From Candidatus Versatilivorator sp. (lineage in GTDB: Bacteria; Acidobacteriota; Terriglobia; Versatilivoradales; Versatilivoraceae): 64,000 bases of DNA. The DNA is taken from assembly GCA_965207735.1 (NCBI GenBank), contig OZ242296.1, forward strand, positions 4,192,001 to 4,256,000. The letters run 5' to 3'. The translations under genes were made by a program, and so were the position numbers. Position 1 is the stretch's first letter; each line of letters opens with the position of its first letter. The notes beneath the pieces were generated by a model. The model was not told the origin of the DNA and made no database searches. It saw nothing but the letters and a program-made list of their open reading frames with translations. Below, one piece after another: positions 40,637-59,804 of this stretch.

Positions 40637-40709
40637 ATAAGTCTTGCCGTGGCTTGTCTTGCCACCAACATCCCTTGCAATCCACTGCCATCCCTCATAT
40701 AATGGGGGG

Positions 40710-41936: not shown

Positions 41937-42086
41937 GTGTAGTTAGGCCCAAGGGATCGGTGGCGTGAACCAAGTCAAGCAGGGGAACTTCTCCCAAAGC
42001 GCGCCAGGGATCGAGCCACACCCGAAGGCCCACGGCCGTCAAGGCCAGGTTGACGAGAATGACTTGGCTCCAGGTCTTCATTTCGC

Positions 42087-42501
42087 CCTTCCCGAAGGGA
42101 TCACTGTGGTGAGAGCGACCTCCCCGCAAGGGGGGCAAAGGGTGTCCCGACCCCTGTCCCCCTTTGCCCTCCCCCGTGGCGCACCAGCGGCCGAAATAGG
42201 GGGGTCGCTCTCACCACTTTCTCCCCTCTCGTGCGGCGCGCCGCCGCGACGGGAGGGAGGGGGACGCGCGAGGCGCAGCCTCGCTTCGCTTTTTCGCAGC
42301 GGACGCGGGAAATCCGTCCTATCCCGCGTCTGATGCGGCGTTTCGGGAAAGTCCCACACCACAACGGCAGGGCTCCGCCCTCTGAGAGAGAGGCGTTGTG
42401 CATATCAAGATCATGTCCCCCTTAGATGTCCTCCCCCCCGTCTAAAAGGGGGACACCCATCTGACGGCATCTGCTTGACCCCCAGAGGCGGAAATCTTCG
42501 G
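42087..42501 (+). repeat. Integrase-associated folded non-coding element, copy 1
   Basis: 15-bp stem 42106-42120/42203-42217 with nested hairpins; homologous to 46840-47254 and, inverted, to 59374-59804. Confidence 0.85.
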
Positions 42502-43159
42502 TCATTCCACGGTCATCGAGTGAGCCCGTTTCTTGCTCCGTTTGGTGGACTTTCTTTGCGGCGGCATCGAAACCGCCATGGCGTTCAAGTGTCTCCCAAT
42601 CGGTGTTAGCGATGGCCTGGCGCAGCCCCGCCGCTTCTGTCTTGGCCGCTGCCGGGTCTCGGGTTGTCCAGGCCTGGAGAACCCGCTGGGTGCGGTCGAG
42701 ATGTTGCTGGTCGCACTTATCGGTTCGACCGTCTCAATTCTCGAGCGCCTCAGATCTTCCTTTGACGAGCCGCACATTCTGATCGTCCCGCTTGCAGGCA
42801 GTAATGCACGATAAAGTGGTTTATCGGGAACTGTTCCAGAGGCCTTGAGGACAGGCGCCAAGGCGTCCTTGAGGTCTCTGTGTACATTCAGGGTTCTTGT
42901 CAATCTTGTCAATCAAAAGAGGAGGGGGAGGGGGTAGGGCTAATTTTAGCCTTTTATTGTACAAATAGAGATGTTTTGAGCCTGAAGTGGTGTAGGTGTA
43001 AATTGTTGTATAATACGCACGTTGCAGAGATATTAGAAAATAAATCCCGTTGTTTGCGTATTTGTGCAATAATTGCTCCAACTTGTTGGCAACGTGTCCC
43101 AAACACGTCAAAAACGTGTAGAACTTACGCCCAAGGGATCCGGATTCTGAGGTCTTCTG

Positions 43160-43342
43160 ATGACTCAAGATCAATTCAGCACTATCCTCGCACGCCTCGA
43201 CGGCATGGAAGAACAGAACAATCGTGACCATGCTGCTATGGGAGAGCGTATAGGCGACCTGGAAAAGAAAATCGACAGCTACCACGCCAATATTCATGAT
43301 GACGTGGCCGAAGTTCTCGCTATCCTGAAGTCGGACGTGTAG
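43160..43342 (+). CDS. Small hypothetical coiled-coil protein
   Basis: GAGG RBS; MTQDQFSTILARLDGMEEQ heptad-like pattern; AT-rich upstream region. Confidence 0.5.
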   Translation: MTQDQFSTILARLDGMEEQNNRDHAAMGERIGDLEKKIDSYHANIHDDVAEVLAILKSDV

Positions 43343-43355
43343 CCCCTTCCTCCCC

Positions 43356-43795
43356 ATAATCTTGTCAACTCTGACCCTTCTAGCGCTGGTCTTGGCGCTG
43401 TCCTCACCAGCTACCTCCTAGGATCTCCTGGTGCCGGCTGAAGTCGTTGACGTCTATGACGGCGATACATTCGTCGCTGACGCCAAGCCATGGCCAGGAG
43501 TCACCATGCGTGTATCGGTCCGGCTCGCTGGCGTGGACACCCCGGAAATGAACGGCAAATGTGAAGATGAGAAGCAGAGAGCCAGGGAAGCCAAGAGCCT
43601 GTTGAAATCGCTCCGTGGCGGCCGCGGTGGCAAGGTTACACTGAAGGGGCCGAAGCGTGGAAAGTATGCTGGCCGAGTGGTTTCACGAGTGATCGTCCGA
43701 GGCGGTCACGATGCCACCACCAGAATGATCAAATCAAATCAGGCTATGGCCGTCCTTATGATGGCGGGAAGCGGAAGGGTTGGTGTAGTGATTAG
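43356..43795 (+). pseudogene. Secreted thermonuclease (SNase) pseudogene
   Basis: VYDGDTF, VRLAGVDTPE and KYAGRV; in-frame TAG at 43419 cuts off the signal peptide; a duplicated AAATC near 43731 shifts the C-terminal YGRPYDGGKRKGWC out of frame. Confidence 0.8.
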
Positions 43796-44002
43796 TAATC
43801 CTGAGCGCGTTTAGGGTTCTTTACGACTTTCCGAGCAGGGCTTTGGCCAGCTCAATCAGGTCGGCGGCGATCGACCCGACAGCCCAAATGATAACGTAGA
43901 GAGCGCCTGCGGAGAAGGACAGCGAAAAGGACTAGGCGAGAAGCGTCTGCAGGGAATTAGGCAACAACTAGGTTCTGTTCACTCCGCCTCGGTGCATCCC
44001 GA

Positions 44003-44209
44003 TCAGACATAAGGGTTCGCTGGTTTCTCGTAGTATTGCAAAGCTGCGGGGGCGAAGTTTTCGTGCTTCAGTTCTTTCCCCGCCCACCACGAGCAGTGCA
44101 GCAGTTCGCCGTAACCCTCGCCTACATTTGAGGATCTCTCCACCGTCATTGGAGGACCGCCTGACTTCAGTTGAACCACGTCTCCGGGCTTGAATTGTGT
44201 ATCACCCAT
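44003..44209 (-). CDS. YodC/DUF2158 family protein
   Basis: FKPGDVVQLKSGGPPMTV...CSWW...F; GGAGG RBS. Confidence 0.85.
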   Translation of the reverse strand: MGDTQFKPGDVVQLKSGGPPMTVERSSNVGEGYGELLHCSWWAGKELKHENFAPAALQYYEKPANPYV

Positions 44210-44213
44210 CTCA

Positions 44214-44546
44214 TTAGACCTCCTCCCATTCCTCGGTTGAATCCAGATCTTTGGTTTGTTCAGGAAGCGGCTCTTGGCCAGTGTCGCCAACGCCTGCAAG
44301 GCGCTCAGCGATCACGCTACATTCCCTCTTGAATCCTCTCTCGAAGTACTCAGGCGGCTGAACTTTCCCAGACGTTCCTTGGTCTGCCCTCCTTTCGGTT
44401 ACTGATCGAATGATCTTAAGATTGGCATCATTGAACAAACGACGGGATATTAGGAGCAAGAAAGCGCGATGCGCCTGTATTCTTCCCTGGAGGTCTTCCA
44501 ACGCCTCCTTGTGATTGTCGAGAACGTGGTTTTTGATCTGATCCAT
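44214..44546 (-). CDS. Hypothetical protein
   Basis: ATG at 44546 after GGAG; stop lies 4 nt before the YodC start. Confidence 0.5.
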   Translation of the reverse strand: MDQIKNHVLDNHKEALEDLQGRIQAHRAFLLLISRRLFNDANLKIIRSVTERRADQGTSGKVQPPEYFERGFKRECSVIAERLAGVGDTGQEPLPEQTKDLDSTEEWEEV

Positions 44547-44557
44547 GGACTTTTCTC

Positions 44558-44830
44558 CTAGTTTCTTCTTTCTGGTAATCGTGGCTGATCCCCCTCCAAT
44601 TGGCCTATCTTGCTGACGAATGGCAGGGCCTTCGGGAACCTTTCCGCAAAATACTTGTTCGCCCAACCGGGTAGCCAAACCTCATTGAAATACCTTCGAA
44701 AATCAGGGAGGCAATCGACCGGATAGAGACGTGCACGCACAGGCGGACGAGTATCATCAAGAAACTCATGCTCATGGGTAGGGAACTGTTCAGGGTCAAT
44801 ACCCTTAGTCTCCCCTGACGATTAATACTA
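44558..44830 (-). pseudogene. C-terminal fragment of a phage-type hypothetical protein
   Basis: Frame reads ...FPTHEHEFLDDTRPPVRARLYPVDCLPDFRRYFNEVWLP...YF; no intact 5' end. Confidence 0.4.
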
Positions 44831-45172
44831 AGGGTGTGTTTACATTCGAATGTGAACGGTTCTAGAGGCGGCGATATATGAAGCTCATGCACGAACCCGA
44901 ATCAGTCCTGCGGTGCGAAGGCCTCCGACAAACACGGCCGGAGGGACACCTAGTATCCTCAGCAGGAATAACTTCTAGACTATCCAAACTTGTATGATTT
45001 GAGTGTGATAAATTATGCGAGAATCATGAGTATATAGTGACTTACCTTAGAAAAAGGCCAGAACCGTCATTGGGGATGGTACAGTTTCGCGCAACCCCGC
45101 AAACGACTGTTGCATTAATGCGGCTCCTGTCCGGATCAGTTCCCGGCCGGCCCGGAGAAGGAGGATGAACCG

Positions 45173-45315
45173 TTGAACAGCCACGACGAACTACGGCAGG
45201 AGATCGAGGCACTGCGCGCGTGCATCTCCTGGCTGGGCGCGGCCAACCGGCGCATCAGCGAAAGTCCCGCCCTCGAAACCGTCCTGCGCGAGGCGCTCGA
45301 ATGCGCCCGTGCCGT
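45173..45315 (+). pseudogene. N-terminal stub of a hybrid sensor kinase paralog
   Basis: ELRQEIEALRACISWLGAANRRISESPALETVLREALECA aligns with TLKREHEALRHCISKLSAASLRIVASLDLGTVLREAVESA of the 20097 gene; same GGAGGAT..TTG start context. Confidence 0.75.
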
Positions 45316-45379
45316 ACGGGTGCCGCTCCAGCTTCTCGTACTGGGCGGCCGAAGAGACGGACCATCCCCCGGTGCAGAG

Positions 45380-45520
45380 TCCAGAAAGTTCCAGAGATAT
45401 CTACTAAAGTATTGTAAGTAGACCTTTATGAGTCACTTATGGTATATTGGTGTCTATTGATGTCCAGGGTGTTCCCGGACGTTCAGGGTGATCTTAGGGG
45501 TGATCTCACAGGGGGTGATC
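45380..45520. promoter_or_regulatory. att-arm-like region of integrase 2
   Basis: TCYAS at 45380/45390/45400 and related pentamers at 45453/45463/45473; TTTATGAGTCACTTAT at 45425-45440; GGGTGATC three times just before the start. Confidence 0.55.
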
Positions 45521-45522
45521 CG

Positions 45523-46701
45523 GTGACCCGATACCGCAAGAAACTCTCCGCCGCCTTCGTCCGCTCCGTCGAGCAGCCCGGACTCTACTGGGACGAGCAT
45601 GGCTTGATCCTACGGGTCAAACCGTCCGGATACAAGCAATGGATCCAACGGCTCTTCATCCACGGCAAGCGCCGCGAGCTGGGTCTGGGCTCTCTTCGGC
45701 TCGTGACGCTGGCCCAGGCCCGGGAGAGGGCCATCGCCAACCGCAGGCTGGCCCGCTCGGGAGGCAATCCCCTGGCCTCCCGGCGCCACTCCGTCCCGAC
45801 GTTCGAGCAGGCCGCCGCCAAGGTCTACGCCATGTACCGGCCCAACTGGAGAAGCGACCATCATGCCGCCCAGTGGAAAGGCAGCCTGCGCAGCTACGTC
45901 TACCCCAAGCTGGGCCGGATGCGGGTGGACGGGATCACGACGGCCGATGTCATGGCCGTCCTGTCGCCGATCTGGAACACCAGGCAGGCAACGGCCCGGC
46001 GGGTGCGGCAACGGATCGGCACGGTGATGAAGTGGGCCATTGCCCAGGGCTACCGGATGGACAATCCGGCCGGGGAAGCGCTCGGGGCCGCGCTGCCGAA
46101 ACAGGGCGGCATCCCACGCCACTTCAAGGCTCTGCCCTATGGGGAGGTGGCCGGGGCGATCCGGACGGTGCGGCAATCGGAAGCAGACGTGGGGGTCAAG
46201 CTCGGCTTCGAGTTCCTGGTGCTGACGGCGTGCCGGTCGGGGGAGATGCGCGGGGCGCGCTGGGCGGAGATCGACCTGGAGGCGGGAGTGTGGACGGTTC
46301 CCCCGGAACGGATGAAGCACCAGAGAGAGCACCGGGTCCCGTTGTCTGCGGGAGCGCGGAGGATTCTGGCCGAGGCGAGGCGGATCGAGAGATCTTCCGA
46401 TCTGGTGTTTCCGACTCCGGCCGGTGGCCCACTGCCGGACCGCGATCTCAGCACCCTGCTGCGGGAACTGGGAATCGGGGCCGTGCCGCATGGGTTCCGC
46501 TCGTCGTTCCGGGACTGGGCGGGGGAGCGGACCGATGCTCCCCATGCGGTGATGGAGGCGGCGTTGTCGCACGTGGTCCGCAACCAGGTGGAAGCGGCCT
46601 ATGCCCGCTCGGACCTGTTCGAGCGGCGGCGTGTCCTGATGGAACAGTGGGCGGAGTTTCTGGCCCGGGGGACGGAGGAGGACGCGGAGCTCCTTGCGTA
46701 A
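45523..46701 (+). CDS. P4-like tyrosine integrase 2
   Basis: KKLSAAFVRS...GLILRVKPSG...RELGLG; LTACRSGE, HGFRSSFRDW, ALSH and EAAYARSD; paralog of integrase 1. Confidence 0.93.
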   Translation: MTRYRKKLSAAFVRSVEQPGLYWDEHGLILRVKPSGYKQWIQRLFIHGKRRELGLGSLRLVTLAQARERAIANRRLARSGGNPLASRRHSVPTFEQAAAKVYAMYRPNWRSDHHAAQWKGSLRSYVYPKLGRMRVDGITTADVMAVLSPIWNTRQATARRVRQRIGTVMKWAIAQGYRMDNPAGEALGAALPKQGGIPRHFKALPYGEVAGAIRTVRQSEADVGVKLGFEFLVLTACRSGEMRGARWAEIDLEAGVWTVPPERMKHQREHRVPLSAGARRILAEARRIERSSDLVFPTPAGGPLPDRDLSTLLRELGIGAVPHGFRSSFRDWAGERTDAPHAVMEAALSHVVRNQVEAAYARSDLFERRRVLMEQWAEFLARGTEEDAELLA

Positions 46702-46839
46702 AGAGGCCCACGGCATCGGTCGCCCGCACCAGGGCTGGCAGGGCGACCTGCCCCGGACCGGCGAGGGTGAGAGCCAAGCGCGAAGTCCGGAAGCAGTCAA
46801 GACCAGGTTGGGCAGGACAACCCGGGTCCGGGTCTTCAG

Positions 46840-47254
46840 CCTTCCCGCCAGGGATCACTGTGGAGGGAGCGACCCCGAAAAGGGGAGGTTAACCGTGAAC
46901 TGTGAAGTGAAACGGCTAACCCTCCCCGATGCCGCACTAGCGGTCAGAAAGCAGGGTCGCTCCCTCCACCTTCTCCCCTCTCGTGCGGCGCGCCGCCGCG
47001 ACGGGAGGGAGGGGGACGCGCGAGGCGTAGCCTCGCTTCACCTTGTGGCGTCAGACACGGAAAATCCTTGTTGTCCCGTGTCTGATGCGGTGATTGGGGA
47101 GAGTCCTCGACCACGGCGGCGAGGACTCCGTCCTCTGAGAGAAAGGCGTTGTGGGTGTGGAAATCATGAAACGGCCGAGTGAACATCGCTGCGTTGTAGC
47201 CGTTTCACCCATACGACGGCATCTCCTTGACCCCCAGAGGTAACAATCGTCGAT
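46840..47254 (+). repeat. Integrase-associated folded non-coding element, copy 2
   Basis: 16-bp stem 46860-46875/46954-46969; compensatory changes relative to copy 1. Confidence 0.85.
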
Positions 47255-47574
47255 CAGTGCAGGGTCATTGTTTTACGCCGATTGGTCCCCCAACTGGAGG
47301 ACATTCTTAATGGTGACCTCAATGCCACCATGGCGTTTGACGGTGTCCCAATTAGCATCCGCGATGGCCTGGCGAGGGGAGGCCACGGTAACCCCTCATT
47401 ACTCTCATACATTGCTCCCGTTTCTCTGGAAATCGGTCGCGATAATCTTGGATTGCCTCCAGGCATCGAGACCAGCGGTCTCTGAGACGAAAATCGGGGT
47501 TGTGGCCATTTTCAGTGTATTATGGGTATGCTGAGGGCCGGGGAAATACGTACTACGCGGCCTAGCTAGAGGAC

Positions 47575-48771
47575 TTAGGGGGGGCTGTTCGAGTAATAAC
47601 GACCGATGCTCGCTGCCACATGAACACTTGTCGTGTAAGAACGTCCATCGGATCGAAGGCAGTCCGGATCGCGGTCCGGGCCAAAAGCACGTATGCCCGT
47701 TTGCATCCGGGCGGCGAGCTCGTTCCTGATGGTATCAGATAAGTCGTTCCACCAGCTTGGTTTCATGTAGACGTTCTCAAGATGCTCGACCGCCAGCTGG
47801 ATTCCCCTGTTGGCCTTCTCTTCATCCGGCACATCTTGGAACGAGCGCCCGAACAACGCCGCAGGGCCCTTGTGCCCTTCAGTCCAGCCAATTACAAGCA
47901 CGCTTCTGCCATTGAGAACTGTCAAGTTAAGACCCACGTGCTCGTGTGGTGAATCACCGCGGGTGACTATTTGCAGTAGATTGCCAGCAAAGTCATACTC
48001 GGGATGAAATGCTCCACAACCCACGACAGGCAAGACAGCCGAAAAAACCACGCCGACAAATCGATATTCTTCGAATTGCTCCTCGATGAAGATTGTGTCG
48101 TATTGTTTCTTCCACCGCTCGCAGTCAGTCAGACCGCGTTTAGTTCCCTCTTTGTGAAGGTGGATATGCTGCTGCAATTCGCACTGTTCCCAATAGGGCT
48201 TTCCACGGTCGAATTCCCGCATTATATTCACGGTTCGAAGTGCGGCCTTCTTGTTAAATAGTTCATAGGAGATTGCCCGAAAGCCCAACAGGAAACAAGA
48301 CTTTGGAGTGAGCGGGACAGTGTGGCTTTCGACCGGCTGGAACATCGAGTGGTCATGGGTATCACAAAATCCCATGAATGTGGAAGCGCTCCGCACCCCG
48401 ACCTTACTGGGCACAAAGGCGCCATGGTTCCGTAACCGGTCTCGGAATCCTGCTTTAGCGGAAATGACATGGCCGTTTTCGGCTATGGCAGCGAGCCCGC
48501 CACGTCGTTGCACCGTGTGTGATCGAATTATTCTACGCCCGCAGTTTTCAGAACTAGCTTCCGGATGAGAACAGTACCCCCCTTCGAATTCATGGTCCAG
48601 CTGTGACAACTGGTCGTGGAAATTGACGGGCGGTTGAGACTCCCGGTTTCGGTGGCACTGCTTCCATTTTTTGCCGGAGCCGCACCAGCAAGGGGCATTG
48701 CGCGGCATTTTAAGGTGGGGCGTAAGGTCATCTGGTGGAACGAACTGCGCATGGAGGGAAGCGTGAGCCAT
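47575..48771 (-). CDS. SEC-C motif protein with additional Cys/His clusters
   Basis: RNAPCWCGSGKKWKQCH; CSHP...C...IRSHTVQR; FMGFCDTHD. Confidence 0.8.
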   Translation of the reverse strand: MAHASLHAQFVPPDDLTPHLKMPRNAPCWCGSGKKWKQCHRNRESQPPVNFHDQLSQLDHEFEGGYCSHPEASSENCGRRIIRSHTVQRRGGLAAIAENGHVISAKAGFRDRLRNHGAFVPSKVGVRSASTFMGFCDTHDHSMFQPVESHTVPLTPKSCFLLGFRAISYELFNKKAALRTVNIMREFDRGKPYWEQCELQQHIHLHKEGTKRGLTDCERWKKQYDTIFIEEQFEEYRFVGVVFSAVLPVVGCGAFHPEYDFAGNLLQIVTRGDSPHEHVGLNLTVLNGRSVLVIGWTEGHKGPAALFGRSFQDVPDEEKANRGIQLAVEHLENVYMKPSWWNDLSDTIRNELAARMQTGIRAFGPDRDPDCLRSDGRSYTTSVHVAASIGRYYSNSPP

Positions 48772-48919
48772 TTAAGGTGGTAAATCTAATTCTGACCGTC
48801 GACTTCTAAATGGTACGCGGTCAGCTTCTTGAACACAATGAGTCTGCTGGCGGGAACGCAAGCGTCGACGAGGTCGACGGTTATCGCGAAAGCGGTCTCC
48901 TGAGGCATGTCCTGGCGTT

Positions 48920-49066
48920 GGCAGACCTATTCTCCAAGGATGTGCCACTGGAGGATGTGCTGTACTTGGCCGGCCACGCTAACCCTAGGACCACTTTATT
49001 CTATAATTCTATGATCGCTGACGGTGGAGCGTTACCCTAAATGTTGTGGAGAGATTTTCCGTGTGA
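48920..49066 (+). pseudogene. C-terminal remnant of a XerC/D-type tyrosine recombinase
   Basis: DLFSKDVPLEDVLYLAGHANPRTTLFY, then a frameshifted VTLNVVERFSV*. Confidence 0.7.
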
Positions 49067-49462
49067 GCACTCGCTCAATCCTTCCGGAGGGACTGCCGAT
49101 TGGCCAAAAAGAAAGAGTCAGAAAGGGCGCTCAACCAAACATCGCCCGTAGGGGCACTGCCGGCAACGACCACTCATGACAACGGCCAGCGTTGGCGACC
49201 GCATCGCGTCCAGGTTCTCTGAAACGATTCCCTCCTGGTCAAAATCGGTCACTGCCTCGATAATGACCACCGTAACGTCACCGGTGTGGTCGGTCCGGTT
49301 GCGGCCCTTTTTAATAGCTGTGGGTACGACGGAACGTCCATCTAGACCTCAGCCTCATCCTGGAGCCAGGCTCCCCCGTTCCAACTGGGGATTCGCGGCG
49401 ATCCGAGCCATCCCAGTGCTAGATTACAGCGCCGTCACCTACTCACGAAGGTTCGGACCAGA

Positions 49463-52400
49463 GTGAATGTCCATATGAATTCGGAAAACAATGCACGAAA
49501 GGTTGCGGCCGTTCTGGCGCACCCTTCGATTTTGCGTGGGGCTTGGTTGCGCGTGGACGCTTGGTACAAACACGGGGAACTCGCGCCGCAGCCGGAACTT
49601 GCGCGATGGCGTCTGCACCCCGAGGCCATGCTTCGGGATCTGGCACAGCGGTTGCGCGAAGATGACTGGAAACCGGAGCTATGGCGGCAGGTGCCCTATC
49701 CCAAGAAGGGCCGGTGTTTGAGGCACTACACGATGCCGACGGTTCGGGACCAAGTGGCGTTCATGGCTCACATGGTCGCGTTGGGACCGATCCTCGATCA
49801 ACAGTTCGCGAATTTCGCGTTTGGGAACCGGTGGTACCGTCCGATCGCGTGGGACCGAAGGCAGCATCCCCCAAGGTGGGTGCATCGCCCATATCCAGTG
49901 CTCACGGACAGGAGCTATCTATCTTACGCACGATCTCACGGGTTGTTTCGGCGCGTGGCGCATTGGACAGTGGCTCGGATGACGCAGGCAACTCTCCCCG
50001 CGGAAGACAGCTCGGGCCGGATGCTGCGTCCCGAGGACTACCAGGATGGGACGCTCCCGGAGTGGACGAAACCGGAGTGGTGGACGGGAGCAGTTAACTC
50101 GGCGCGCGCTTTCTGGGCTTACTTGGACATTGAACTCGCGTATCCATCTGTTCGCATCGAGCGGTTAGCCTTGGCGATGGAACGCGCACTCCTGCAGCCG
50201 GTCCAACTCGTCCAACTCGAACAACTATACGACGGCTGCCCGGAACCCGTATTGAAAGCACTTGCCATCACAGACGTACGAGTGGAGGTCGGGCGCCGAC
50301 TGACCACAACGTTGGGCGAGATCACTTTGGACGCTGGCGGAATTCCGCCAGATGCGTGGAGCCCTCCTCAGGGACACGATTTCCCTAGTGTGACAACAGA
50401 ACGTTTCAACGGGATACCTACTGGACTCATCATTTCTGGAATGTTGCTCAACGTGGCGCTGATGGAGGCGGATCGAGTGATCCGCCGATATCTCGAACAG
50501 ACCTCGGGGAAACGACGCGGAGCGATCGTCAGGTTCGCGGACGATATGTACATTCTGTCCCGATCGTCTGAGGGCCTCTTATCCTTGGTTGAAGCCGTTC
50601 ACGGAGCACTGTCGGGGACCGAGGAGTCTTCCCTTGCAGTACCTAACGAGGTTTCCAACATCTGCATCAATTTGAGAAAGATAAAGCCGGATGCGGTCCG
50701 GGGAATCATCTACAAGTACCTCCTTGATCAGGGTTGGACCGAGTGTGGAAGCAACAAGTGTAAACAGCCGTTGCCCCCGTCCACAAAGGAGTCAAAGAGT
50801 AACCAGGCATCGAGCGTACGGATATCGGACTTGGGAACGGCGCTCTTGCCCGGCGGCCGGTTTGCGTCCGAACAGGAAGCCTTGGAGCGCGCAGCTGTCG
50901 AAAAAGGAGATGTCGGTCCGTTCGTCACGCGGCTAGTCGAACGGCTGAGCGACATGGGGACGGACACGCTTCGACAGCGATTCGGTGAGGGCGCTCGGGA
51001 TCATCTAGCACGTTTACACGAACTGGCACGCTTCGACATAGAGGACGAGCAGGTACCGCCTGAGACGCGTCGCACCTTCGCGGTCAACCGCCTTGTTCGT
51101 GCATGGTTGCCAAGGTCCTCAGAGCTGGGCGAAGAGGATAGAGAGTTGCGCCAGATCCGCGAGACCATCGGTTTCGTGCTGGACCGCACGCCATGGAAGT
51201 TCGCGATCTGGCGGGCGTTGGTTCGCGGCGCGGCGCGACGCCCGCTTTTTGAGGCGAAGGACAACGGGATAGCGGCTCAAGAGGCGGCAGCGTGGTTGTG
51301 CGACCGCATCCGTCGAATCGCGTGTGCAACGGACTCCATAAACTCGACGACTTGGCTATCCGCTTGGCCGGAGATCGATCGTGACGACGGCCACACCGCT
51401 GAACGGACAGACGAATGGCAGCACCTCTATCTGTCGTTCCTACGAGCTGTCTTTTGGCGCTCACTCGCGGAAACCGTGCGTGAACTCGGGCGTTATGCCA
51501 AGCCGGTGGAGGACGATGAATCAACTGAGCGGGTGCCATCGCCGTTTCTCTGGACGGCAAGAGCGGTTGGAGACGGACGCTACGGACAAGCGGTGGATGA
51601 CTTGGGCCGCATCGACGAATGGGTCGAGATACTGTACCCAGCAGCGAATGACGTGAAAATCGACACGTGGCCGTGGGAACTGGACGAGTTCGTCGGAGCA
51701 GTTTTGGCCGTGCACACGACCACAGAACTCGCGCAGGCATGGCGAAGCACTAAGGGTCCGGGATCCGTGTTGCGCGTGCCTGAGTCCCCTCGATTGGAAG
51801 GAATGCCGAAAGCGACCCGGCTGTTGTCTCGGACGGGAAGGCTCCAGCAGAAGGGATCGAGGCGTAATCGGAAACTCGACCTCTGGGCGCTGGCGAACGT
51901 GCAGTTGGGTCGTTGGGATCAAGGGTTAGGAAGTGTTCTCTTCCCGCCGTCCGGAAAGCCGCGCATACGGCAAGCGGAGCGCAATGCACAGGAGGCTGTG
52001 GCCGCAGGATTCTCCCTAGGGTGTTTTAAATGGATCGGTCTAAGGCTTGCGAACCGAGCGGCTCCCAAGATGGACGAGGGTGCAGGCGCTTTTGATCGGA
52101 ATGCGTTTGTGCTCCATGACTATGATCGAGCACGGCGCGTAATCGTCGGCCAAACGACTGAGGCAGCGTCGCGCCCAACGGTCCACCGGCTCCTTTGGGG
52201 GAGGCCGACTGCAGCCAGGCTGAATGGATGGCAAATGGCCCAGTGGGAGATTCCAGCGGTGGGATTACCCCTTCGCGTTGCTGCGGCACTGTTCAGTGTC
52301 GTCCGTGAGACAGCAACTACTGTGGGATGGGAATGCAGTTTGGGACCGCTGACGTGGCTGATCGACGATGACGCGGGAGTCTTGGTCGCGGGTCGCTGCG

Positions 52401-53923
52401 AGCAGTTGGAAGGACTCGAAAAATCCAACGACTTGGCCAACCACCCACAAATCAAACCGGAAACGGATGAGGAACTGATATCAGTACGAAGGTCGACGGC
52501 GTGGGAGGTTCTGCCGCACGCGGCGTTTTATCTGCCGTTTGAGTCGGCTGCTGCGGGTAGAGTGCACGTGGAGAGCTACGTCCTGTACTGCGATGTGCTG
52601 CTTCTGTTGACTTTGCTTGACGGTGCCGAGCGGATTCTCGATATCTTGGCTAGATGGGGAATTAGGGGAACGCCGTTCGTGGACCGATGGGGCTGGCGGT
52701 CGCGGATTCACCTGCCGCTCCAGGCATGGAAGTCCATTGAGTCGATCCTCCGCTGGAGCGCGTCGCCGGGGTCCAATATTACGTCATCCGGGAGGCAACT
52801 CGTCGATTCGCTGGCCCAGTACTCCCGCAAATATGTCTCCTGGGAGGATTTCCGTCCTGAGAGGATTGACATCGGTCTTTCTCCTCGACGGGATCTCGAC
52901 ATCGTTAGGACGGTCCGTCCGGCGGGCGAATTAATCGGCCCAGAGCTACCTCCCGAATTGCACATCGACGAGACTCAGATTATGGATGTGCTTGTCGCAC
53001 GTGTGGGGCAGGTGGCCGCATGGCCGAACAACGCGCACGTAGTTAGACGATTCCCGAGGATCCCGTCTACCATGGCGAACTTAATGATCGAACAGGTTGC
53101 CAATGTGTTCCTTGCGCCCGCGCAAGCCGTCGACGAAGCGGCTCCGCAATTGGTAGTCCTTCCGGAATTGTCAATTCCGCAGCAAGAAGTCGGGAGTCTA
53201 AGGGACTTGGTGAGAGCCGAGGGTAAAGGAGCAGTAGCGGGACTCTATTGGCGCGCGCTGAAACCTGCATTTCGGCCCTCAAGGCCTTCGACACCAACAC
53301 AGGCTTGGTTGGTAAACGAAGCCGAAGTTGTAGTACCCGTCGGCCGTGACAATGGACCGCCGACAGTCAGGTGGTTTCGTGTCCGAAAGCCGGTGTCTGC
53401 GCACACCGAAGACGGTCTAGCGAGGGCGCTATCGAAAGTGTCGGGGACAAGGTGGCGAATGCTGCGGGGTAACCAGTGGTTTCGATTTGTGCATCCGAAT
53501 TGGGGGGACTTTACAGTGGCGATCTGTGCGGACCTGATCGAATCGGCGCCCTGGAGGGCGTTTCGGGGTGAACTCTTACACCTTCTAATGGTGGCATTTA
53601 ACAAGGATGTCGACCTGTTTGACTCGCTGACATGGGTGCGTGCGTACGAAAACTACGTCAACGTCGTGTCTGTGAATCACGGTCGATTCGGCGGGTCGTT
53701 CCTGTGGACTCCACGCAGGACCCATGAGCGTGAGTTAGCGAGACTTCGCGGCGGCCACCTGGTGTTGACAGCCGACGTTCAGTTGCCGGTCAAGGAACTG
53801 CTGGGAGCACAGAAAGCGGGTACAGCGCAGGCGATCGAGGAATCCGCCAAGAAGTGGCGTAACGAAGCCTCAGTGGAGACGAAGTTCAAGACTCCGCCTC
53901 CTGGATTCCGTAGAATTTTGTAA
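49463..53923 (+). CDS. Reverse transcriptase-nitrilase fusion (UG/Abi-type, DRT1/UG1-like), 1486 aa
   Basis: RT motifs PYPKK..R, RDQV, FGNRWYR, LDIELAYPSV, GIPTGLIISGMLLN and VRFADD (50534-50545); C-terminal C-N hydrolase triad LPELS (E 53165), VRKP (K 53387), AICAD (C 53525), plus AFNKDV. Confidence 0.9.
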   Translation: MNVHMNSENNARKVAAVLAHPSILRGAWLRVDAWYKHGELAPQPELARWRLHPEAMLRDLAQRLREDDWKPELWRQVPYPKKGRCLRHYTMPTVRDQVAFMAHMVALGPILDQQFANFAFGNRWYRPIAWDRRQHPPRWVHRPYPVLTDRSYLSYARSHGLFRRVAHWTVARMTQATLPAEDSSGRMLRPEDYQDGTLPEWTKPEWWTGAVNSARAFWAYLDIELAYPSVRIERLALAMERALLQPVQLVQLEQLYDGCPEPVLKALAITDVRVEVGRRLTTTLGEITLDAGGIPPDAWSPPQGHDFPSVTTERFNGIPTGLIISGMLLNVALMEADRVIRRYLEQTSGKRRGAIVRFADDMYILSRSSEGLLSLVEAVHGALSGTEESSLAVPNEVSNICINLRKIKPDAVRGIIYKYLLDQGWTECGSNKCKQPLPPSTKESKSNQASSVRISDLGTALLPGGRFASEQEALERAAVEKGDVGPFVTRLVERLSDMGTDTLRQRFGEGARDHLARLHELARFDIEDEQVPPETRRTFAVNRLVRAWLPRSSELGEEDRELRQIRETIGFVLDRTPWKFAIWRALVRGAARRPLFEAKDNGIAAQEAAAWLCDRIRRIACATDSINSTTWLSAWPEIDRDDGHTAERTDEWQHLYLSFLRAVFWRSLAETVRELGRYAKPVEDDESTERVPSPFLWTARAVGDGRYGQAVDDLGRIDEWVEILYPAANDVKIDTWPWELDEFVGAVLAVHTTTELAQAWRSTKGPGSVLRVPESPRLEGMPKATRLLSRTGRLQQKGSRRNRKLDLWALANVQLGRWDQGLGSVLFPPSGKPRIRQAERNAQEAVAAGFSLGCFKWIGLRLANRAAPKMDEGAGAFDRNAFVLHDYDRARRVIVGQTTEAASRPTVHRLLWGRPTAARLNGWQMAQWEIPAVGLPLRVAAALFSVVRETATTVGWECSLGPLTWLIDDDAGVLVAGRCEQLEGLEKSNDLANHPQIKPETDEELISVRRSTAWEVLPHAAFYLPFESAAAGRVHVESYVLYCDVLLLLTLLDGAERILDILARWGIRGTPFVDRWGWRSRIHLPLQAWKSIESILRWSASPGSNITSSGRQLVDSLAQYSRKYVSWEDFRPERIDIGLSPRRDLDIVRTVRPAGELIGPELPPELHIDETQIMDVLVARVGQVAAWPNNAHVVRRFPRIPSTMANLMIEQVANVFLAPAQAVDEAAPQLVVLPELSIPQQEVGSLRDLVRAEGKGAVAGLYWRALKPAFRPSRPSTPTQAWLVNEAEVVVPVGRDNGPPTVRWFRVRKPVSAHTEDGLARALSKVSGTRWRMLRGNQWFRFVHPNWGDFTVAICADLIESAPWRAFRGELLHLLMVAFNKDVDLFDSLTWVRAYENYVNVVSVNHGRFGGSFLWTPRRTHERELARLRGGHLVLTADVQLPVKELLGAQKAGTAQAIEESAKKWRNEASVETKFKTPPPGFRRIL

Positions 53924-54075
53924 TCCGCTTAAGGTTAACGTGATGCGTCAACGGTGTGTACGAACACAATCAACTTAAGGGGATGCGGGCTGAGTCATAC
54001 GACGTGGGCGTAGGGTCGGTGCCGACTTTCGGCACCGAAAGAGCACCTCCCGTGGAACGCACTGCGGAGGTTCTC
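53923..54075 (+). ncRNA. Candidate structured RNA directly downstream of the RT gene
   Basis: Four tandem stems: 53923-53933/53974-53984 (two internal hairpins), 53998-54012, perfect 10-bp 54016-54038, and 54041-54075; no U-tract. Confidence 0.5.
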
Positions 54076-54171
54076 GATGTAAGTTGTTCCATACAAGCTC
54101 GTTAGATTGGCATTGTCACACCCCAGACTGAGGCAGAATCTGAGATAATAGCACCTGAGTAGAGGCAGGAC

Positions 54172-57100
54172 GTGACAGATCCAGTTTCCGATATAGACGA
54201 GACGCTTGCAACCTTGCGGATCAACAGGGACGCGCGGCGATCTGACGGGACGGCGTTCGAGGACGCGGTGCTTCGGCATGCCGAACACATTCCCGGCTGG
54301 GAAATCGCTCGGTGTTGGAGATACCCGGAGTGGCCGCATCGAATGTCGGTCGGTGTGCCGCTGCCGTCTCACGACGCCGGCATCGACCTTGTTGCCGTAA
54401 AGCATGATGGTTCGCGCGTCGCCATCCAGTGCAAGGCCCGTAGCGGTGGCGGGTCGGTAACGATAACGGAGGTGCAGAAGTTCGCGGGGGCTGCGCCGCC
54501 ATCGGTATTCGCGGAGCGCTGGTTCGTGGCGGAAGCCGGTCGGAGCGAGGCGACGGAGAAAGCGGCTGCAGTGGCACAGGTGACTTTCGTCGATTTCGAG
54601 ACGGCGCTGGCCGAAGCACTGGAGGATGCGCGGGAACGGGAGCGGGCAGCGACGGAACCTGATCCTCGAACGGCAATGCAGCAAGAGGCGGTGGCCGAAT
54701 GCGTGCAGGCGCTTCGCGCCGGTTTGCCGGAACACAAGGATCTCTGGGTCGGCAGCAATCCGAAAGAATGGATGCCTTCTGACGCGACGCGGGCGACGTT
54801 GGTGCTGCCGTGCGGCACCGGAAAGACCCGCGTATCGATGCGGATAATGTCAGAGTTGGCGGAGGCAGGTGACCTCGGCGTCGTGCTCGTGCCGAGCATC
54901 GCGCTTATAGCACAGGTGCGGCACGAGTACCTGTCGCACATCGGGTGTCCGGTGCGGACGCTGGCCGTGTGCAGCGACGCGACGGCGGGTCATGTCGATG
55001 TCGAGCGGGATCCGGATCTCGTGGTGGACCCCACTCGGGACACGGGACAGGTCCGCGCGGCCGATGTCGGTTGCCGGGTAGCGCAGAGCACCGCCGCGGT
55101 CGCGGATTGGCTTCGCACTGGCAGGGACTCGACCGACCTGCGTATCATCTTCTCGACGTACCAGTCAGCGCACCACGCGGCGGAGGCGCTACTGGCGGAG
55201 CGCCGGTTCGCGCAGGTCCTGATTCTGGACGAAGCTCACCGGACGGCCCAATTGCGGCCAGCTAAGAGCCAGCGACAGGCTGAGCGACTGCGAAGGTTCA
55301 CGCTGTGTCACGACCAGGATGCGTTCCCGGCCCGGTACCGTCTGTACCAGACGGCGACGCCCCGCGTCTACGATGCGAGCAATGCGAAGGTGGCCCGTAT
55401 CGACCGCACGAAGTGGATCGTGGCGAGCATGTCGGACGAGTCGATCTTCGGTCCGGTAGCCTACCGGCTTCCGTACCAGGAAGCGGTCAAGAAGGGCTTT
55501 CTGTCGGACTACCGGATCATCGCGATCGGAGTCGATGGGCGGGCATGGGCCGCGGCCAATCGGATTGTCCAGTTGTTCGAGCAGTCGAACGAGACGCGCG
55601 GGCTGACGACCCGAGAAGCGCTCTCCTGGCTGGTCTACGGTGTGACCCTGGCCGGGGGCGCGGTCGGAGACGATGGCAGCGTGCGCGTGAGCCGGTCGCT
55701 GGCGTTCCTGAACAAGGTCCAGCGTTCCAACCAGATGGTGAGGTGGCTCAACAGCGACGAGGGACGCGCAGAGATCGAGCGGTACTTTACCGAGGGCGGG
55801 GTTGAAGGGATCGGTCGGCAGTATGCCGTGGAGCATCTCGACGCCGGGCACCCCGTTCGCGAACGGCGGCGGGCGCTGCGCGATCTCGCGGCGGCGCATA
55901 CCGAGAAGCCACGCGGGATCGCGAACGTTGGTATCTTCGGCGAAGGAACCAATAGTCCGAGTCTCGATGCGGTGGCTCTGCTGGCTCCGCGCCGCAGCCC
56001 GACCGACGTGATCCAGATCGTCGGCCGGTGCATGCGCCGGGCGCCGGGAAAGCAATTCGGGTACGTAATCGTACCCGTTCCGTTGCCGCGGGGTATCGAC
56101 GCAGAGACGAGTCTATCGATGGATACGCTCGGCGACGAGTGGAAGGCGCTCGGTGAGGTTCTGCGGGCGCTACGAGCACACGATGGACGCATTGAGGACG
56201 AGATTTCAAGCCTGCTGCAGATCTACGTCCCGCCGGAGGCTGAGGAACCGGTTCGGCAGCCTGTGATCGTCAGGGACGGCGCTGTGACTCGCATGGGCGT
56301 TTGGAGTGGACCTCGGGGCCACGCCGAAGACGCCGTGGCGCGAGCGGAAGTGCCAGCGTGGCGTGAGCCTGCGGCGGGCGGGGCTCCTGTCACCGAGTAC
56401 TTGACGGAGGACAAGGGCTTCGCGTGGCAGGAGGCTCCGGCCACAGGCAGTGAGTCTGGGCGTTTCACCGACGGCCAGGCTGCCGACGATGAGAGGATGT
56501 TGGATGAGTCGCCGGTCGTGTTGGTCATCCAGCGCGGACGAGGCGGCGTCCATTGCACTGTGCAGGCTGCGGCGCGGTCCATGGAGCGGCATGGCGGCGT
56601 CGATGTGGCGAAAACCGTAGAGCGGGCGCGTGAGGCTGCCGAGTCACTCAACCCGCTGCCGAGGCGTCCCAGGCGGCGCGTCTCCCCGCGCGGTGGGTCC
56701 AAGAACGGCCGGTCGGCTGGGTTGTCGCCGACGCAGCGACTTCTAAAGCAGATCCGGCAGGATGGCGTAGGCCGGGATTTGCGTGTCGAAGTGATGGAGA
56801 AGTCCGGGCTACGCGGAAACGAGGTGCGCGACTTCAACCTGCTGATGGAGCCCGTCCAGCGCTCATCGGGGTATTTAAGTCGCGAGGGACTGGAGGGGCG
56901 ACTGCGTGCGGTGCTCGGCATGGAGCACTTGCAGTCCACCGACGCCTTTGCCGATGCGTGCACGGTCAGCGTGTTGTTACTGATGAACGCGGCACTGTTG
57001 CACGCACGGCTGGAGGACACGAAGGGTCAGGCGGCGGATCTGGCTCGTGTCGGGCGCCTTCACGACGTGGCCATCGGGAGCGAACCGGTCAAGGTACTGC

Positions 57101-59148
57101 GCGAGGCATGGACGGCCGTGCTGCGGTATGACTATGAGCCGGTGTTGCGGCCGGCACTCGATGTTCTTGAGGCGCTGGCTGCAGCGGACGCGCACGGCGG
57201 CGTCAACCAGGCGCTGCGAGCGGTCGCCGCCTGGGCCGAGGAGAACGCTGAGATCTACGTGTCAATGGGAATGGAGTATGCAGGTGAACTGTTCAGTCGC
57301 GTTCTGGGTAACCAGGCGTCCGACGGCGCGTTTTTCACACGTCAACCGGCCGCAAGGCTGCTCGCTGAATTGGCGCTTGACGGTACAGGCGAATCTGAAT
57401 GGACCGAGCGGCGGACATGGCAGCGACTCCGAATGGCGGATCTTGCGTGCGGTAGCGGAACTCTACTCAATGCGTATGTGGAGGCAGTCAAGGATCGGAT
57501 ACGCGAGGCCGGAGGCGACGAGCGAAGCGCCACGGAGTTCCACAAGTACGCTGTAGAGAGGCTCGTGACCGGTCTGGACATCAATCCTGTGTCCTTGCAA
57601 ATGGCGGCCGGCCGACTGACGCTAGGGAACCTCCAGGTCGATTACCGGAAGATGGGTCTCCGAGTTCTGCCGTATGGTCCCTTCGATGGCGACGCGGTAC
57701 GGCTCGGGTCGTTGGAGTTGTTAACCGACGAAGATGTGGTAGGGCCGGCACCGGCGACTACGGGCTCTGCGGAAAGGAAGGGACAGAGCGCGCTGTTCGA
57801 GTGGTCTACTGTGGACCCGGAGGTCGTGCAGGATGTTGAGGAGCGGCGGATCGTAATGATGAATCCGCCGTTCACTGCAAACGACAAAAAGGGCCGGAAG
57901 TTCACGCCGGAAGTCGTAAAGGCGCTTCAAAGGCGGGAGTTGCAGATCCGCGATCGGCTAGCGGTTAGCGATTTCGACGCGGCAAGCGTCATCGACGCGA
58001 ACAGCATAAGAACGATGTTCACGCCGCTCGCGGAAAAAGTCCTGTCCGAAAGTGACGGCGTTCTCGCCAAGATCATGCCGGTGACGGCCTGCACGGGAGC
58101 CTCCGGACTCGAAGAACGGCAGTTTCTCGCTTCTCGGTTCCACATCCACATGATCGTGTGCTGCCATGAGCCGCAGGAGCCGAATTTGTCTACTCACACG
58201 TCGATCAACGAGTGCCTGTTAATCGCGACGCGGCACGGGGCCGATTCCAGGCCAACCACCATGTTTGTCAACCTACGCCGCTTCCCGAAATCAGTGGAAG
58301 CTGTCCAGCACGTCGTAGCCGCGATCCGAGACCGGCGTGTCGACGAGGTGGGCACGCTATGCAAGTGGCCGGCCGATCGCGTGCGCGCCGGCGACTGGTC
58401 TCCTGTCCAGTGGTTCGATCCGAGGTTAGCCGAAGCGGCAACGGGACTTCGAGCTGCATCCGGTCTGTGCCGGCTGGATGTACTGTACAAGATGGGACCG
58501 GCCGGCCGACGTATCCGTGATGCGTTCGAGCGCGTGACGGACGGATCTTCGACGGCAAGCGATGTGGCTGTATTCGATTCGATCTCAAGCGACCTTCGCG
58601 TCTCGTTGGCCGGCGAGCCGGATGCTATGTGGCGGCCGAGACCCAGAAAGGAGCGCATGGTACGTTCATATCTTGCGCAGACGGGCTGGATGCTGCTGAT
58701 GAACCGTGCCGACACCCATGCGGCCTCGGTCGTGGGTGTGTGCGCTTTGGCGAAAGGCTTTGGGTCCGGCCTAATGCCAGTGGTGACGGAGACGCGCGAG
58801 CAGGCCAAGGCCCTAAGCGTTGTGTGGAACGGTACTCCCGTTCTCCTGCAATTGCTGAACATGCGCACCAAGAAGTTGACGTACCTGAACTGGTCGGTCG
58901 CGCAACTTGGATCGGTACGTGTCCCGGTAACGCTAGATGACGTGGGAGAGCAGGCTGCGCTGGTAGGTGTCTATGACCGTCTGTGTCGGGAGCAGCTGCA
59001 ACCCTGGACACACGCGGATATAGATCCCGTCCGGCGTGAGATCGACGCCGCCGTTGCCCAAGCATATGGGCTCTCGGAAAGTGTACTGGCGGATTGGCGC
59101 AAGTGGTTGGCGAAGGAGCCGACTATAGCCAACCGGAGTCCGGTCTAG
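54172..59148 (+). CDS. Type ISP-like restriction-modification enzyme (Mrr nuclease-SF2 helicase-N6 methyltransferase-putative TRD)
   Basis: DAGIDLVA...AIQCK; LPCGTGKT, STYQS, DEAH, TATP, QIVGRCMR; DLACGSGTLL and MNPPF. Confidence 0.85.
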   Translation: MTDPVSDIDETLATLRINRDARRSDGTAFEDAVLRHAEHIPGWEIARCWRYPEWPHRMSVGVPLPSHDAGIDLVAVKHDGSRVAIQCKARSGGGSVTITEVQKFAGAAPPSVFAERWFVAEAGRSEATEKAAAVAQVTFVDFETALAEALEDARERERAATEPDPRTAMQQEAVAECVQALRAGLPEHKDLWVGSNPKEWMPSDATRATLVLPCGTGKTRVSMRIMSELAEAGDLGVVLVPSIALIAQVRHEYLSHIGCPVRTLAVCSDATAGHVDVERDPDLVVDPTRDTGQVRAADVGCRVAQSTAAVADWLRTGRDSTDLRIIFSTYQSAHHAAEALLAERRFAQVLILDEAHRTAQLRPAKSQRQAERLRRFTLCHDQDAFPARYRLYQTATPRVYDASNAKVARIDRTKWIVASMSDESIFGPVAYRLPYQEAVKKGFLSDYRIIAIGVDGRAWAAANRIVQLFEQSNETRGLTTREALSWLVYGVTLAGGAVGDDGSVRVSRSLAFLNKVQRSNQMVRWLNSDEGRAEIERYFTEGGVEGIGRQYAVEHLDAGHPVRERRRALRDLAAAHTEKPRGIANVGIFGEGTNSPSLDAVALLAPRRSPTDVIQIVGRCMRRAPGKQFGYVIVPVPLPRGIDAETSLSMDTLGDEWKALGEVLRALRAHDGRIEDEISSLLQIYVPPEAEEPVRQPVIVRDGAVTRMGVWSGPRGHAEDAVARAEVPAWREPAAGGAPVTEYLTEDKGFAWQEAPATGSESGRFTDGQAADDERMLDESPVVLVIQRGRGGVHCTVQAAARSMERHGGVDVAKTVERAREAAESLNPLPRRPRRRVSPRGGSKNGRSAGLSPTQRLLKQIRQDGVGRDLRVEVMEKSGLRGNEVRDFNLLMEPVQRSSGYLSREGLEGRLRAVLGMEHLQSTDAFADACTVSVLLLMNAALLHARLEDTKGQAADLARVGRLHDVAIGSEPVKVLREAWTAVLRYDYEPVLRPALDVLEALAAADAHGGVNQALRAVAAWAEENAEIYVSMGMEYAGELFSRVLGNQASDGAFFTRQPAARLLAELALDGTGESEWTERRTWQRLRMADLACGSGTLLNAYVEAVKDRIREAGGDERSATEFHKYAVERLVTGLDINPVSLQMAAGRLTLGNLQVDYRKMGLRVLPYGPFDGDAVRLGSLELLTDEDVVGPAPATTGSAERKGQSALFEWSTVDPEVVQDVEERRIVMMNPPFTANDKKGRKFTPEVVKALQRRELQIRDRLAVSDFDAASVIDANSIRTMFTPLAEKVLSESDGVLAKIMPVTACTGASGLEERQFLASRFHIHMIVCCHEPQEPNLSTHTSINECLLIATRHGADSRPTTMFVNLRRFPKSVEAVQHVVAAIRDRRVDEVGTLCKWPADRVRAGDWSPVQWFDPRLAEAATGLRAASGLCRLDVLYKMGPAGRRIRDAFERVTDGSSTASDVAVFDSISSDLRVSLAGEPDAMWRPRPRKERMVRSYLAQTGWMLLMNRADTHAASVVGVCALAKGFGSGLMPVVTETREQAKALSVVWNGTPVLLQLLNMRTKKLTYLNWSVAQLGSVRVPVTLDDVGEQAALVGVYDRLCREQLQPWTHADIDPVRREIDAAVAQAYGLSESVLADWRKWLAKEPTIANRSPV

Positions 59149-59373
59149 TTCGAGTTTACTTGACGATCGGCTCAAAGCCATACGGATGATGAAATTTCAT
59201 GGCCAAGACTGCCTGCCGTGCTTTCCCTCCACAGGCCCCGCTCACCTCTTCCAGTCACCCTTGCAGTTCCACCTCGTCGACGGTTAAGTGTTCCACATGG
59301 CGGCCTCGACGCCGTCGTGGAAAAGTTCGACCAAGCGGACGAGGACAGGCCGCCCTCGGCCGGAGCGGGATGG

Positions 59374-59804
59374 GTCGACGATTTCCGGCTCCGGGGGTCA
59401 AGGAAGTGGCGTCGTATGGGTGGCCACCTTTCAGACGGGGGGTGGCTCACACAGGTGGCGCACCAAGTGGCTCACGCACTTGACCAACACAACGCCTTTC
59501 TCTCAGAGGGCGAAGTCCTCCTCATTGTGGTCCAGGTTGTGCCCGGAAACCCGCATTGGAAGCGGGTTGGCAAGGATTCTCCGAATCCTCTTCGGCAAAG
59601 CTCCGTGCGGCGCCGGCTTGAGTTGTCCCCGCCTCGCACGGCGCGTCGTGGCGCCGCACAGGAGGGGGAGGAAGTGGAGGGAGCGACCCCCCCTTTTTGG
59701 CCGCTGGTGCGCCACGGGGGAGGGCAAAGGGGGACAGGGGTCCGGACACCCTTTGCCCCCCTTGCGGGGAGGTCGCTCTCACCACAGTGATCCCTACGGG
59801 AAGG
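59374..59804 (-). repeat. Integrase-associated folded non-coding element, copy 3 (inverted)
   Basis: Reverse complement starts CCTTCCCGTAGGGATCACTGTGGTGAGAGCGACCTCCCCGCAAGGGGGGCAAAGGG, nearly identical to copy 1; shares CCTCTGAGAGAAAGGCGTTGTG and CTTGACCCCC blocks. Confidence 0.85.

Follow-up and report, generated by a model that had tools for sequence, protein, structure and literature searches.

By analogy, the closest working model for the DNA element described here is the staphylococcal pWBG749 family of origins of transfer (oriT). In that family, specificity depends on an unvarying core, on repeats that differ by subtype and on the accessory factor SmpO, and a hitchhiker carrying its own smpO was mobilized by a non-cognate helper (PMC8136818). 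The present element occurs in three copies within a 64,000-nt stretch (the window) of the genome of Candidatus Versatilivorator sp. (source genome G000), each next to an intact or decayed tyrosine integrase gene and to the 3' end of a gene termed X. As in the pWBG749 family, an invariant core is combined with subtype repeats, and the DNA-binding residues encoded by the adjacent gene follow the subtype; hitchhikers carrying several subtypes, and a hitchhiker bringing its own specificity gene, are common to both. Unlike SmpO, a ribbon-helix-helix protein, protein X (315 amino acids, aa) joins a winged helix to a nuclease-like fold, and unlike the staphylococcal hitchhikers those found here, known from their sequence alone, are chromosomal islands, and at least nine repeat subtypes occur in one genome.

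Relaxase systems of the MOB_C class offered a second comparison (pAD1 TraX, CloDF13 MobC and ICEKp1; PMC12857230, PMC6736028, PMC5935869, PMC7755788, each source available in part). Reviews describe TraX as having a winged helix, a restriction-enzyme-like site and an essential tyrosine, and as binding five direct repeats located 70-120 bases from the nick (PMC12857230, PMC6736028). Reported nick sites are GGGTG/GTCGGG and GGTTG/GTCGCG (PMC5935869, PMC7755788), and proteins of Pfam family PF13814 are classed as MOB_C in the portion available of PMC5357655. The system studied here shares the plan of winged helix plus PD-(D/E)XK fold, a direct-repeat site, predicted to be protein-bound, apart from the putative nick, an adjoining gene for a VirD4-type coupling protein (type IV coupling protein, T4CP) and a PF13814-like gene in the integrative and conjugative element (ICE). 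It differs in harboring two proteins of this plan, P0124, apparently catalytic, and X, apparently specificity-setting, in placing repeats both within an outer stem and about 200-300 bases away, and in a candidate nick motif that is only loosely similar.

The hitchhiking islands fit the class of iOriTs and of integrative mobilizable elements (IMEs), with the element as their presumed origin. As in the available part of the iOriT study (bioRxiv 10.64898/2026.01.13.699239), they are delimited by att sites, belong to tyrosine integrases, carry no mating-pair genes or relaxase candidate, share only the putative oriT with a co-resident ICE (element copy E16) and outnumber that ICE. That study covered six clinical species with up to nine integrative elements per chromosome, nearly all above 4 kb, whereas 22 islands were found here in one genome, five of them of only 2.1-2.4 kb, inserted in multi-copy REP-like palindromes (REP, repetitive extragenic palindrome; the label refers to the palindromic, multi-copy form of the repeat). 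In Firmicutes, elements of the IME_oriT type insert at the oriT of ICEs (PMC7563843, available in part); three modules in G000 likewise insert at the predicted oriT and, unlike IME_oriT, have no relaxase and consist only of an integrase and another element copy. The concepts of oriT mimics, iOriTs and elements inserting in oriT are already known, and the literature searched, most subscription journals being outside its scope, yielded no account of this element or protein X, nor of any tyrosine integrase that targets REPs.

In our reading (probability about 0.7), the element is the putative MOB_C-like oriT of a family of ICEs in acidobacteria; its repeats are specific to each subtype, and the hitchhiking islands that reuse it would be mobilized in trans. 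An oriT was one of several single-stranded structures listed by the initial annotation, and it is the best supported of them. In copy E16, the element lies in an ICE encoding a P4-type integrase, a primase-helicase, VirB3/B4/B9/B10/B5/B6/B8, X, then the element, followed by T4CP, VirB11, a RepB primase (PF16793, E 8.5e-20), ArdC and the weak Replic_Relax gene P0124; the direction of the ICE genes is opposite to the strand that the initial annotation had folded. The element is thereby a non-coding cis region adjoining the coupling-protein and relaxosome genes of a conjugative system, as an oriT is. Distant X loci (27 loci with 36-54% identity, from Bryobacterales, Terriglobia, Vicinamibacterales, a deltaproteobacterium and a gemmatimonad) displayed T4CP after X in 23 cases and element profile matches beside X in 17. 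In two distant ICEs (L059, L073), the interval from X to T4CP contains an inserted tandem array of units of about 25 bases (CTCTGGAGCAGCACTG-like), placed between X and the core of the element. The att ends of the ICE itself were searched for and not found. A second, decayed VirB cluster of distant type (G000:2,777,874-2,789,174) was without X, T4CP and element together.

Homology of the three blocks in the window was confirmed on the annotated strands, with 78% mean column identity, and iterated profile searches recovered 47 near-full copies and 31 fragments in G000. The gene X 3' end was retained by 44 of the 47 copies and the T4CP 5' end by 10; in the window, all three copies retain the X end, and copies 1 and 2 also the first T4CP codons. 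The proposed non-coding element of about 400 nt was non-coding in its body, while its final 70-80 bases proved to be the 3' end of gene X on the opposite strand, and homology reached position ~42710. A coding remnant was rejected as an explanation of the whole element, except for these final bases. Indels in the body break the reading frame (1 mod 3 in 243/292 cases), which together with the absence of strand bias fits double-stranded, non-coding DNA. The modular composition proposed for the copies was borne out as a mosaic structure: the three window copies carry three different repeat types, and copy 3, a chimera, has a 5' domain like that of copy 1. Integrase 3, initially taken for a clearly different subtype, turned out to be a truncated remnant interrupted by an insertion sequence (IS). 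By genome, the element was found in 13/13 members of the same genus, in 0/11 others of the family and weakly in 2/16 others of the class. Neither blastn against annotated plasmids and phages nor a pattern search of viral contigs gave an element match; the 1/401 tally of a phylum-wide pattern search is no measure of range, as the permitted gap was too short to recover G000 itself. Two loci (L112, L113) of G185, a genome from another acidobacterial family, displayed the same architecture with their own repeat motifs and without X, L112 lying near an integrase 72% identical to integrase 1.

Alignment of integrase upstream regions displayed sharp left boundaries, that of integrase 1 falling at window position 40547. 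The right end of its island was located at the window-equivalent position 84,965 (attR, outside the window at G000:4,276,965), where the other half of the palindrome resumes, and both ends share the 7-mer CGCCGCC. This 44.4-kb insert was absent in 5/5 relatives examined. Twenty-two left ends occur in G000, each paired with a right end, and 83 intact copies of the target pattern are present. The islands account for 357 kb (6.8% of the genome), and each holds at least one element copy (41 of the 47 in total, copies within islands not being independent events). VirB4 or P0124, RepB primase and a retained T4CP were each found in 0/22 islands, and full-length X in 4/22. The element marks a family of integrative elements, as had been proposed, in all 22 islands, but its origin is the ICE relaxosome region and not the integrase. 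A position directly 3' of an integrase and in its orientation, claimed for the three blocks of the window, applied to only 18 of the 47 near-full copies. Four islands are arranged as an integrase followed by gene X and then by the element in reversed orientation. In four small islands (G000:1,087,295-1,089,369; 4,406,544-4,408,618; 5,151,297-5,153,371; 3,236,928-3,239,330) the integrase is deleted, and the two att ends and a single element are present; three of these islands are equal in length at different sites, which suggests spread with the integrase acting in trans. Upstream of integrase 1, a ~430-base intergenic repeat (window 40120-40546), multi-copy and abundant throughout the genus, terminates in the REP-like palindrome that this integrase uses, and related P4-type subfamilies use other cores (GTGCAGC, or AGCCGCGTAG, the palindrome's other orientation).

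Each copy carries a 7-9-bp motif as two to three direct repeats, about one helical turn apart, plus an inverted copy near the X end, and usually twice inside the outer stem; a copy typically contains the motif four to five times. Among copies from ICEs, the 3' motif was seen again inside the outer stem in 10/14 cases (within one mismatch) against 10/168 for foreign motifs, some ICE copies having been dropped where the pattern did not parse. The inner arm, initially seen as replaced by an unrelated sequence that still pairs, is this variable repeat, which is found again at the element's opposite end and follows gene X. G000 contains at least nine types of motif, with 19/47 copies matching the island-borne X and 2/47 the X of the resident ICE.

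The structural model of X (pLDDT 90) displayed an N-terminal winged helix (residues 5-96) resembling MarR/ArsR regulators and a C-terminal domain whose top matches were PD-(D/E)XK nucleases (Z 6-7.2), among them NucS (Z 7.2, root-mean-square deviation 3.1, 103 residues aligned) and SdaI (Z 7.0, deviation 4.2, 120 aligned). As read from the alignment, V/I occupies the position of the PD aspartate and Y/F that of the glutamate, two of the three acidic positions thus being seemingly lost, and such hydrophobic or aromatic residues make X more likely a specificity factor. Pfam, NCBIfam and PDB sequences assigned X to no family, Foldseek with the full-length model returned nothing at E<=0.001, and a metagenome scan yielded one short locus; an Atlas label for the C-terminal part (Replic_Relax, 0.77) was taken as a lead only. 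Residues 46-56 took 32 forms among 50 close homologues, and motif similarity tracked these residues over and above the remainder of X (partial rho 0.27, p 0.0004, n 28, below 90% identity), the top 12 sliding windows along X in this set all covering the helix-turn-helix. Two distant loci sharing the helix RPNRAHRF both have TGGAATA. Repeats covarying with the X helix point to a protein-bound DNA site, and X is predicted from these sequences to bind the subtype repeats.

The stems described by the initial annotation were all present, including GACGCGG/CCGCGTC (42302-42308/42324-42330) and its variant in copy 2 (47054-47060/47076-47082). Compensation of the outer stem was upheld, with 97.3% of cells paired and two-sided changes at 8/22 pairs in 27 copies, most of them from ICE contexts; for the outer stem and edge mini-hairpin, 0/500 shuffles reached 97.3% and slid controls gave 47-59%, the structure having been drawn from the same 27 related sequences on which it was tested. 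Covariation over the whole element, which had also been claimed, failed: 0/119 pairs reached E<0.05 when a null based on the tree was taken across every pair of columns in 78 non-redundant genus copies, in a custom implementation (not R-scape) whose model leaves recombination among copies outside. The best structural pairs were 52-82 (E 0.4), 332-381 (5.9), 26-129 (10) and 28-127 (13). The 5' domain showed 29 compensatory events and the 3' domain 7; the middle had 4, as against 264 pair-breaking ones, which leaves the middle hairpins uncompensated. The cGNAg/cGNNAg loops noted initially were in real excess (in 78 copies, 99 on the + strand, compared with 25 on the opposite strand and 7.3 in shuffled sequence), although 63 of the 99 belong to a single mini-hairpin at the 5' edge, whose loop has the form G...A in 86/93 distinct copies.

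P0124, which occurs once in G000, in the ICE, is the candidate relaxase and is predicted from its sequence to nick the element. Among its homologues, 11/36 matched PF13814, below or near threshold (best 7e-05), and H175, D251, E269, Y275 and K283 were invariant in 36/36. For the nick itself, the invariant GGGTCGCT and the conserved TGTGGT resemble GG(G/T)TG/GTCG over few bases only. Transfer could then proceed as follows. A P4-type integrase would excise the island from the REP-like palindrome at the 7-bp core, whose att sites are observed. The winged helix of X, with which the 7-9-bp repeats covary, would bind them and set the subtype that is served. The Replic_Relax/MOB_C-like P0124, which retains acidic catalytic residues seemingly missing from X, would make its nick in or close to the invariant outer inverted repeat. 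Export of the strand would fall to the coupling protein together with the VirB channel; more speculatively, the GNA mini-hairpin at the edge might serve the RepB'-type primase of the ICE for second-strand synthesis. The four islands with an intact X of the commonest subtype could redirect the helper relaxase to that subtype, while X-less islands would ride along. The predicted complex of X and P0124 scored 0.00 and was counted neither way.

Several observations weigh against the element being a MOB_C-like oriT reused by islands. P0124 lies at a distance of ~6 kb from the element, and its match to PF13814 (E 0.002, 18.7 bits) falls below the cut-off of 25.3. The likeness to the published MOB_C nick sites is short and is shared about equally by the invariant arm GGGGTCGCT and by the conserved TGTGGTC. 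All fold matches of X have Z<8. Below 80% identity (n 18), the helix signal was weaker (p 0.014), the remainder of X correlated as well (p 0.023), and a window in the C-terminal part of X, next to the repeats, tied with the helix; in addition, 11/44 motifs were set by hand after the automatic pick had failed. In integrase-X islands, 5' and 3' repeats agreed in only 4/17, which indicates recombination between element halves. In two loci from Vicinamibacterales, X and T4CP adjoin so closely that the element would not fit between them. Lastly, several island integrases are truncated, and many copies may be decaying.

A broader reading is possible but doubtful. The locus would then represent an undescribed acidobacterial system in which the roles of a MOB_C relaxase are divided between one protein that is catalytic and a second, the winged-helix protein X, that is catalytically dead and reads an interchangeable 7-bp oriT barcode via its hypervariable helix. 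One chromosome would thereby host a three-tier parasite ecology (ICE, X-bearing islands and X-less islands down to 2 kb), spread via P4-type integrases that target multi-copy REP-like palindromes or the oriT mini-hairpin.

Among the alternatives, a replication origin of the excised circle survived best, though we consider it unlikely. X would here be a Rep-like initiator acting on iteron-like repeats, the mini-hairpin a single-strand initiation site (ssi) for a RepB'-type primase, and islands would keep the element for maintenance rather than for transfer. Direct repeats placed just downstream of a cognate winged-helix gene and covarying with it would suit such an origin, as would the RepB primase and primase-helicase of the ICE and the conserved G...A loop. 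RSF1010 ssiA, the RepB' site, has a CCGAAGG mini-hairpin (PMC13037366, available in part), and the edge of copy 1 reads CCGAAGG, so that a cGNAg mini-hairpin and a RepB'-family primase co-occur in both systems; the mini-hairpin makes up ~15 of the 430 bases. Yet the position of the element is fixed relative to the coupling-protein gene, inside the transfer operon, 18/22 islands are without full-length X and none has the RepB primase, and 47 live origins per chromosome would presumably need tight silencing. Replication-origin and oriT functions are not mutually exclusive.

It is considerably less probable that the element is the promoter/operator of the T4CP-VirB11-primase-relaxase genes, with X as repressor and island copies as passive debris or decoys. 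Both the likeness of X to MarR/ArsR regulators, with two of three acidic catalytic positions seemingly gone, and the coincidence of the element edge with the T4CP ribosome-binding region within the genus are in its favor. It would leave unexplained, however, why the element occurs in 22/22 islands while T4CP is retained in none, why the stem core is invariant, and why the edge motif persists where the T4CP start lies 25 to more than 100 bases farther.

A structured non-coding RNA linked to integrases is more improbable again. Copy 1 folds strongly relative to shuffles (z -7.5 as RNA, -9.2 as DNA) and the outer stem is compensated, both in favor of an RNA. The argument that G-T wobbles favor folding of the integrase-sense strand fails, as the two strands fold about equally and event counts on the tree are equal (G-T 141, A-C 136, p 0.81). 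Against an RNA, strand bias is absent, the outer-stem pairs are nearly all Watson-Crick, the middle hairpins are uncompensated, the variable parts consist of direct repeats that follow a DNA-binding helix, and orientation to the integrase varies. Contigs of one metatranscriptome run cover element and integrase gene alike and those of a second run barely cover the element, which makes the RNA data uninformative. No known Rfam family was found (0 matches in the window at gathering score, C4 antisense included; best E 0.16, far below gathering), and the initial preference for DNA over RNA holds up.

A second integrase subfamily, and not integrase 1, inserts at the edge mini-hairpin as its core. 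Three nested modules of 2.7-2.9 kb (G000:636,429-639,326; 1,013,912-1,016,809; 2,496,226-2,498,939), each an integrase with its own element copy, are bounded by this core, and their insertion regenerates a target copy. Despite this exact insertion at the mini-hairpin, a folded, attC-like recombination substrate or accessory site of neighboring integrases is hardly credible as the nature of the element, since only ~15 edge bases are so used, the element lies far from the integrase in ICEs, and integrase 1 has ordinary att sites elsewhere: its crossover core was not found in the element (no search aimed at attC boxes was made) but sits in the REP-like palindrome (40552-40558, and window-equivalent 84,965), contrary to the substrate initially suggested.

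Table 1. Features of the 64,000-nt window (positions counted from its first base).
Feature	Position	Strand	Basis
attL of island, with left half of REP-like palindrome; 7-bp core CGCCGCC (40552-40558)	40547..40563	+	upstream-region alignment; site empty in 5/5 relatives
Integrase 1, P4-type tyrosine integrase (Arm-DNA-bind_3, Phage_int_M, Phage_integrase)	40644..41936	+	domain matches
Coupling-protein (VirD4/T4CP) gene 5' remnant, 43 codons, 82% identity to intact ICE gene	41953..42081	-	
Element copy 1 (predicted oriT), TGTCC-type repeats	42087..42510	+	
Copy 1 edge mini-hairpin CCC-GNA-GGG	42087..42101	+	
Copy 1 outer inverted repeat, arms 42106-42120 with 42203-42217, near-invariant core GAGCGACC/GGTCGCTC; candidate nick region	42106..42217	+	
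Subtype repeat, two copies enclosed by copy 1 outer inverted repeat	42143-42151, 42155-42162		
Copy 1 subtype repeats, direct 42413-42421 and 42426-42434, inverted 42448-42456; predicted protein X binding sites	42413..42456	+	
Gene X 3' remnant overlapping end of element copy 1	42422..42712	-	
Integrase 2, P4-type tyrosine integrase	45439..46701	+	domain matches
Coupling-protein gene 5' remnant, frameshifted	46715..46839	-	
Element copy 2, TGAAACG/TGAACAT-type repeats (46895-46915, 47166-47186, inverted 47200-47208)	46840..47260	+	
Copy 2 outer stem	46860-46875/46954-46969	+	
Gene X 3' remnant with internal stop, at copy 2	47186..47392	-	
Gene X 3' remnant at copy 3	59296..59451	+	
Element copy 3, chimera: 5' domain copy-1-like, 3' repeats of TGAGCCA type	59368..59804	-	
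Integrase 3 remnant, without N-terminal arm domain, interrupted by IS	59893..62441	-	

The IS within integrase 3 (60127-62055, - strand) encodes a DDE_Tnp_1 transposase (60187-61908) and displayed short terminal inverted repeats and a CCTAAG duplication, with ~15 copies in G000. Between copies 2 and 3, a 1486-aa protein (49463-53923, +) harbors a weak reverse-transcriptase (RT) domain (group II RT, E 1.8e-17; Drt2, E 5e-4; both under the cut-off) and is possibly an unclassified defense RT; a 96-aa open reading frame (49176-49466) overlaps its start. It is followed by a 1658-aa fusion of Mrr nuclease, helicase and N6 methylase (54172-59148, +), a type ISP-like restriction-modification cargo. 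ARAGORN predicted a 96-base tRNA-Leu(GAG) at 27157-27252, within a long open reading frame; this is probably a false call, and an ordinary tRNA-Leu(GAG) is present elsewhere in G000.

According to the available portion of a 2012 survey, nothing was known about conjugation in the Acidobacteria phylum (PMC3548315). If the reading of the element as an ICE-derived oriT is true, it would provide a concrete oriT, a relaxase candidate and a specificity factor for this phylum, and would explain the movement of defense and restriction cargo, such as the 1486-aa RT and the 1658-aa restriction-modification fusion, among sponge-associated bacteria. The matched variants of helix and repeat form a ready panel for testing a protein-DNA recognition code, and for genome engineering an integrase that could target 83 sites per genome would be of interest.

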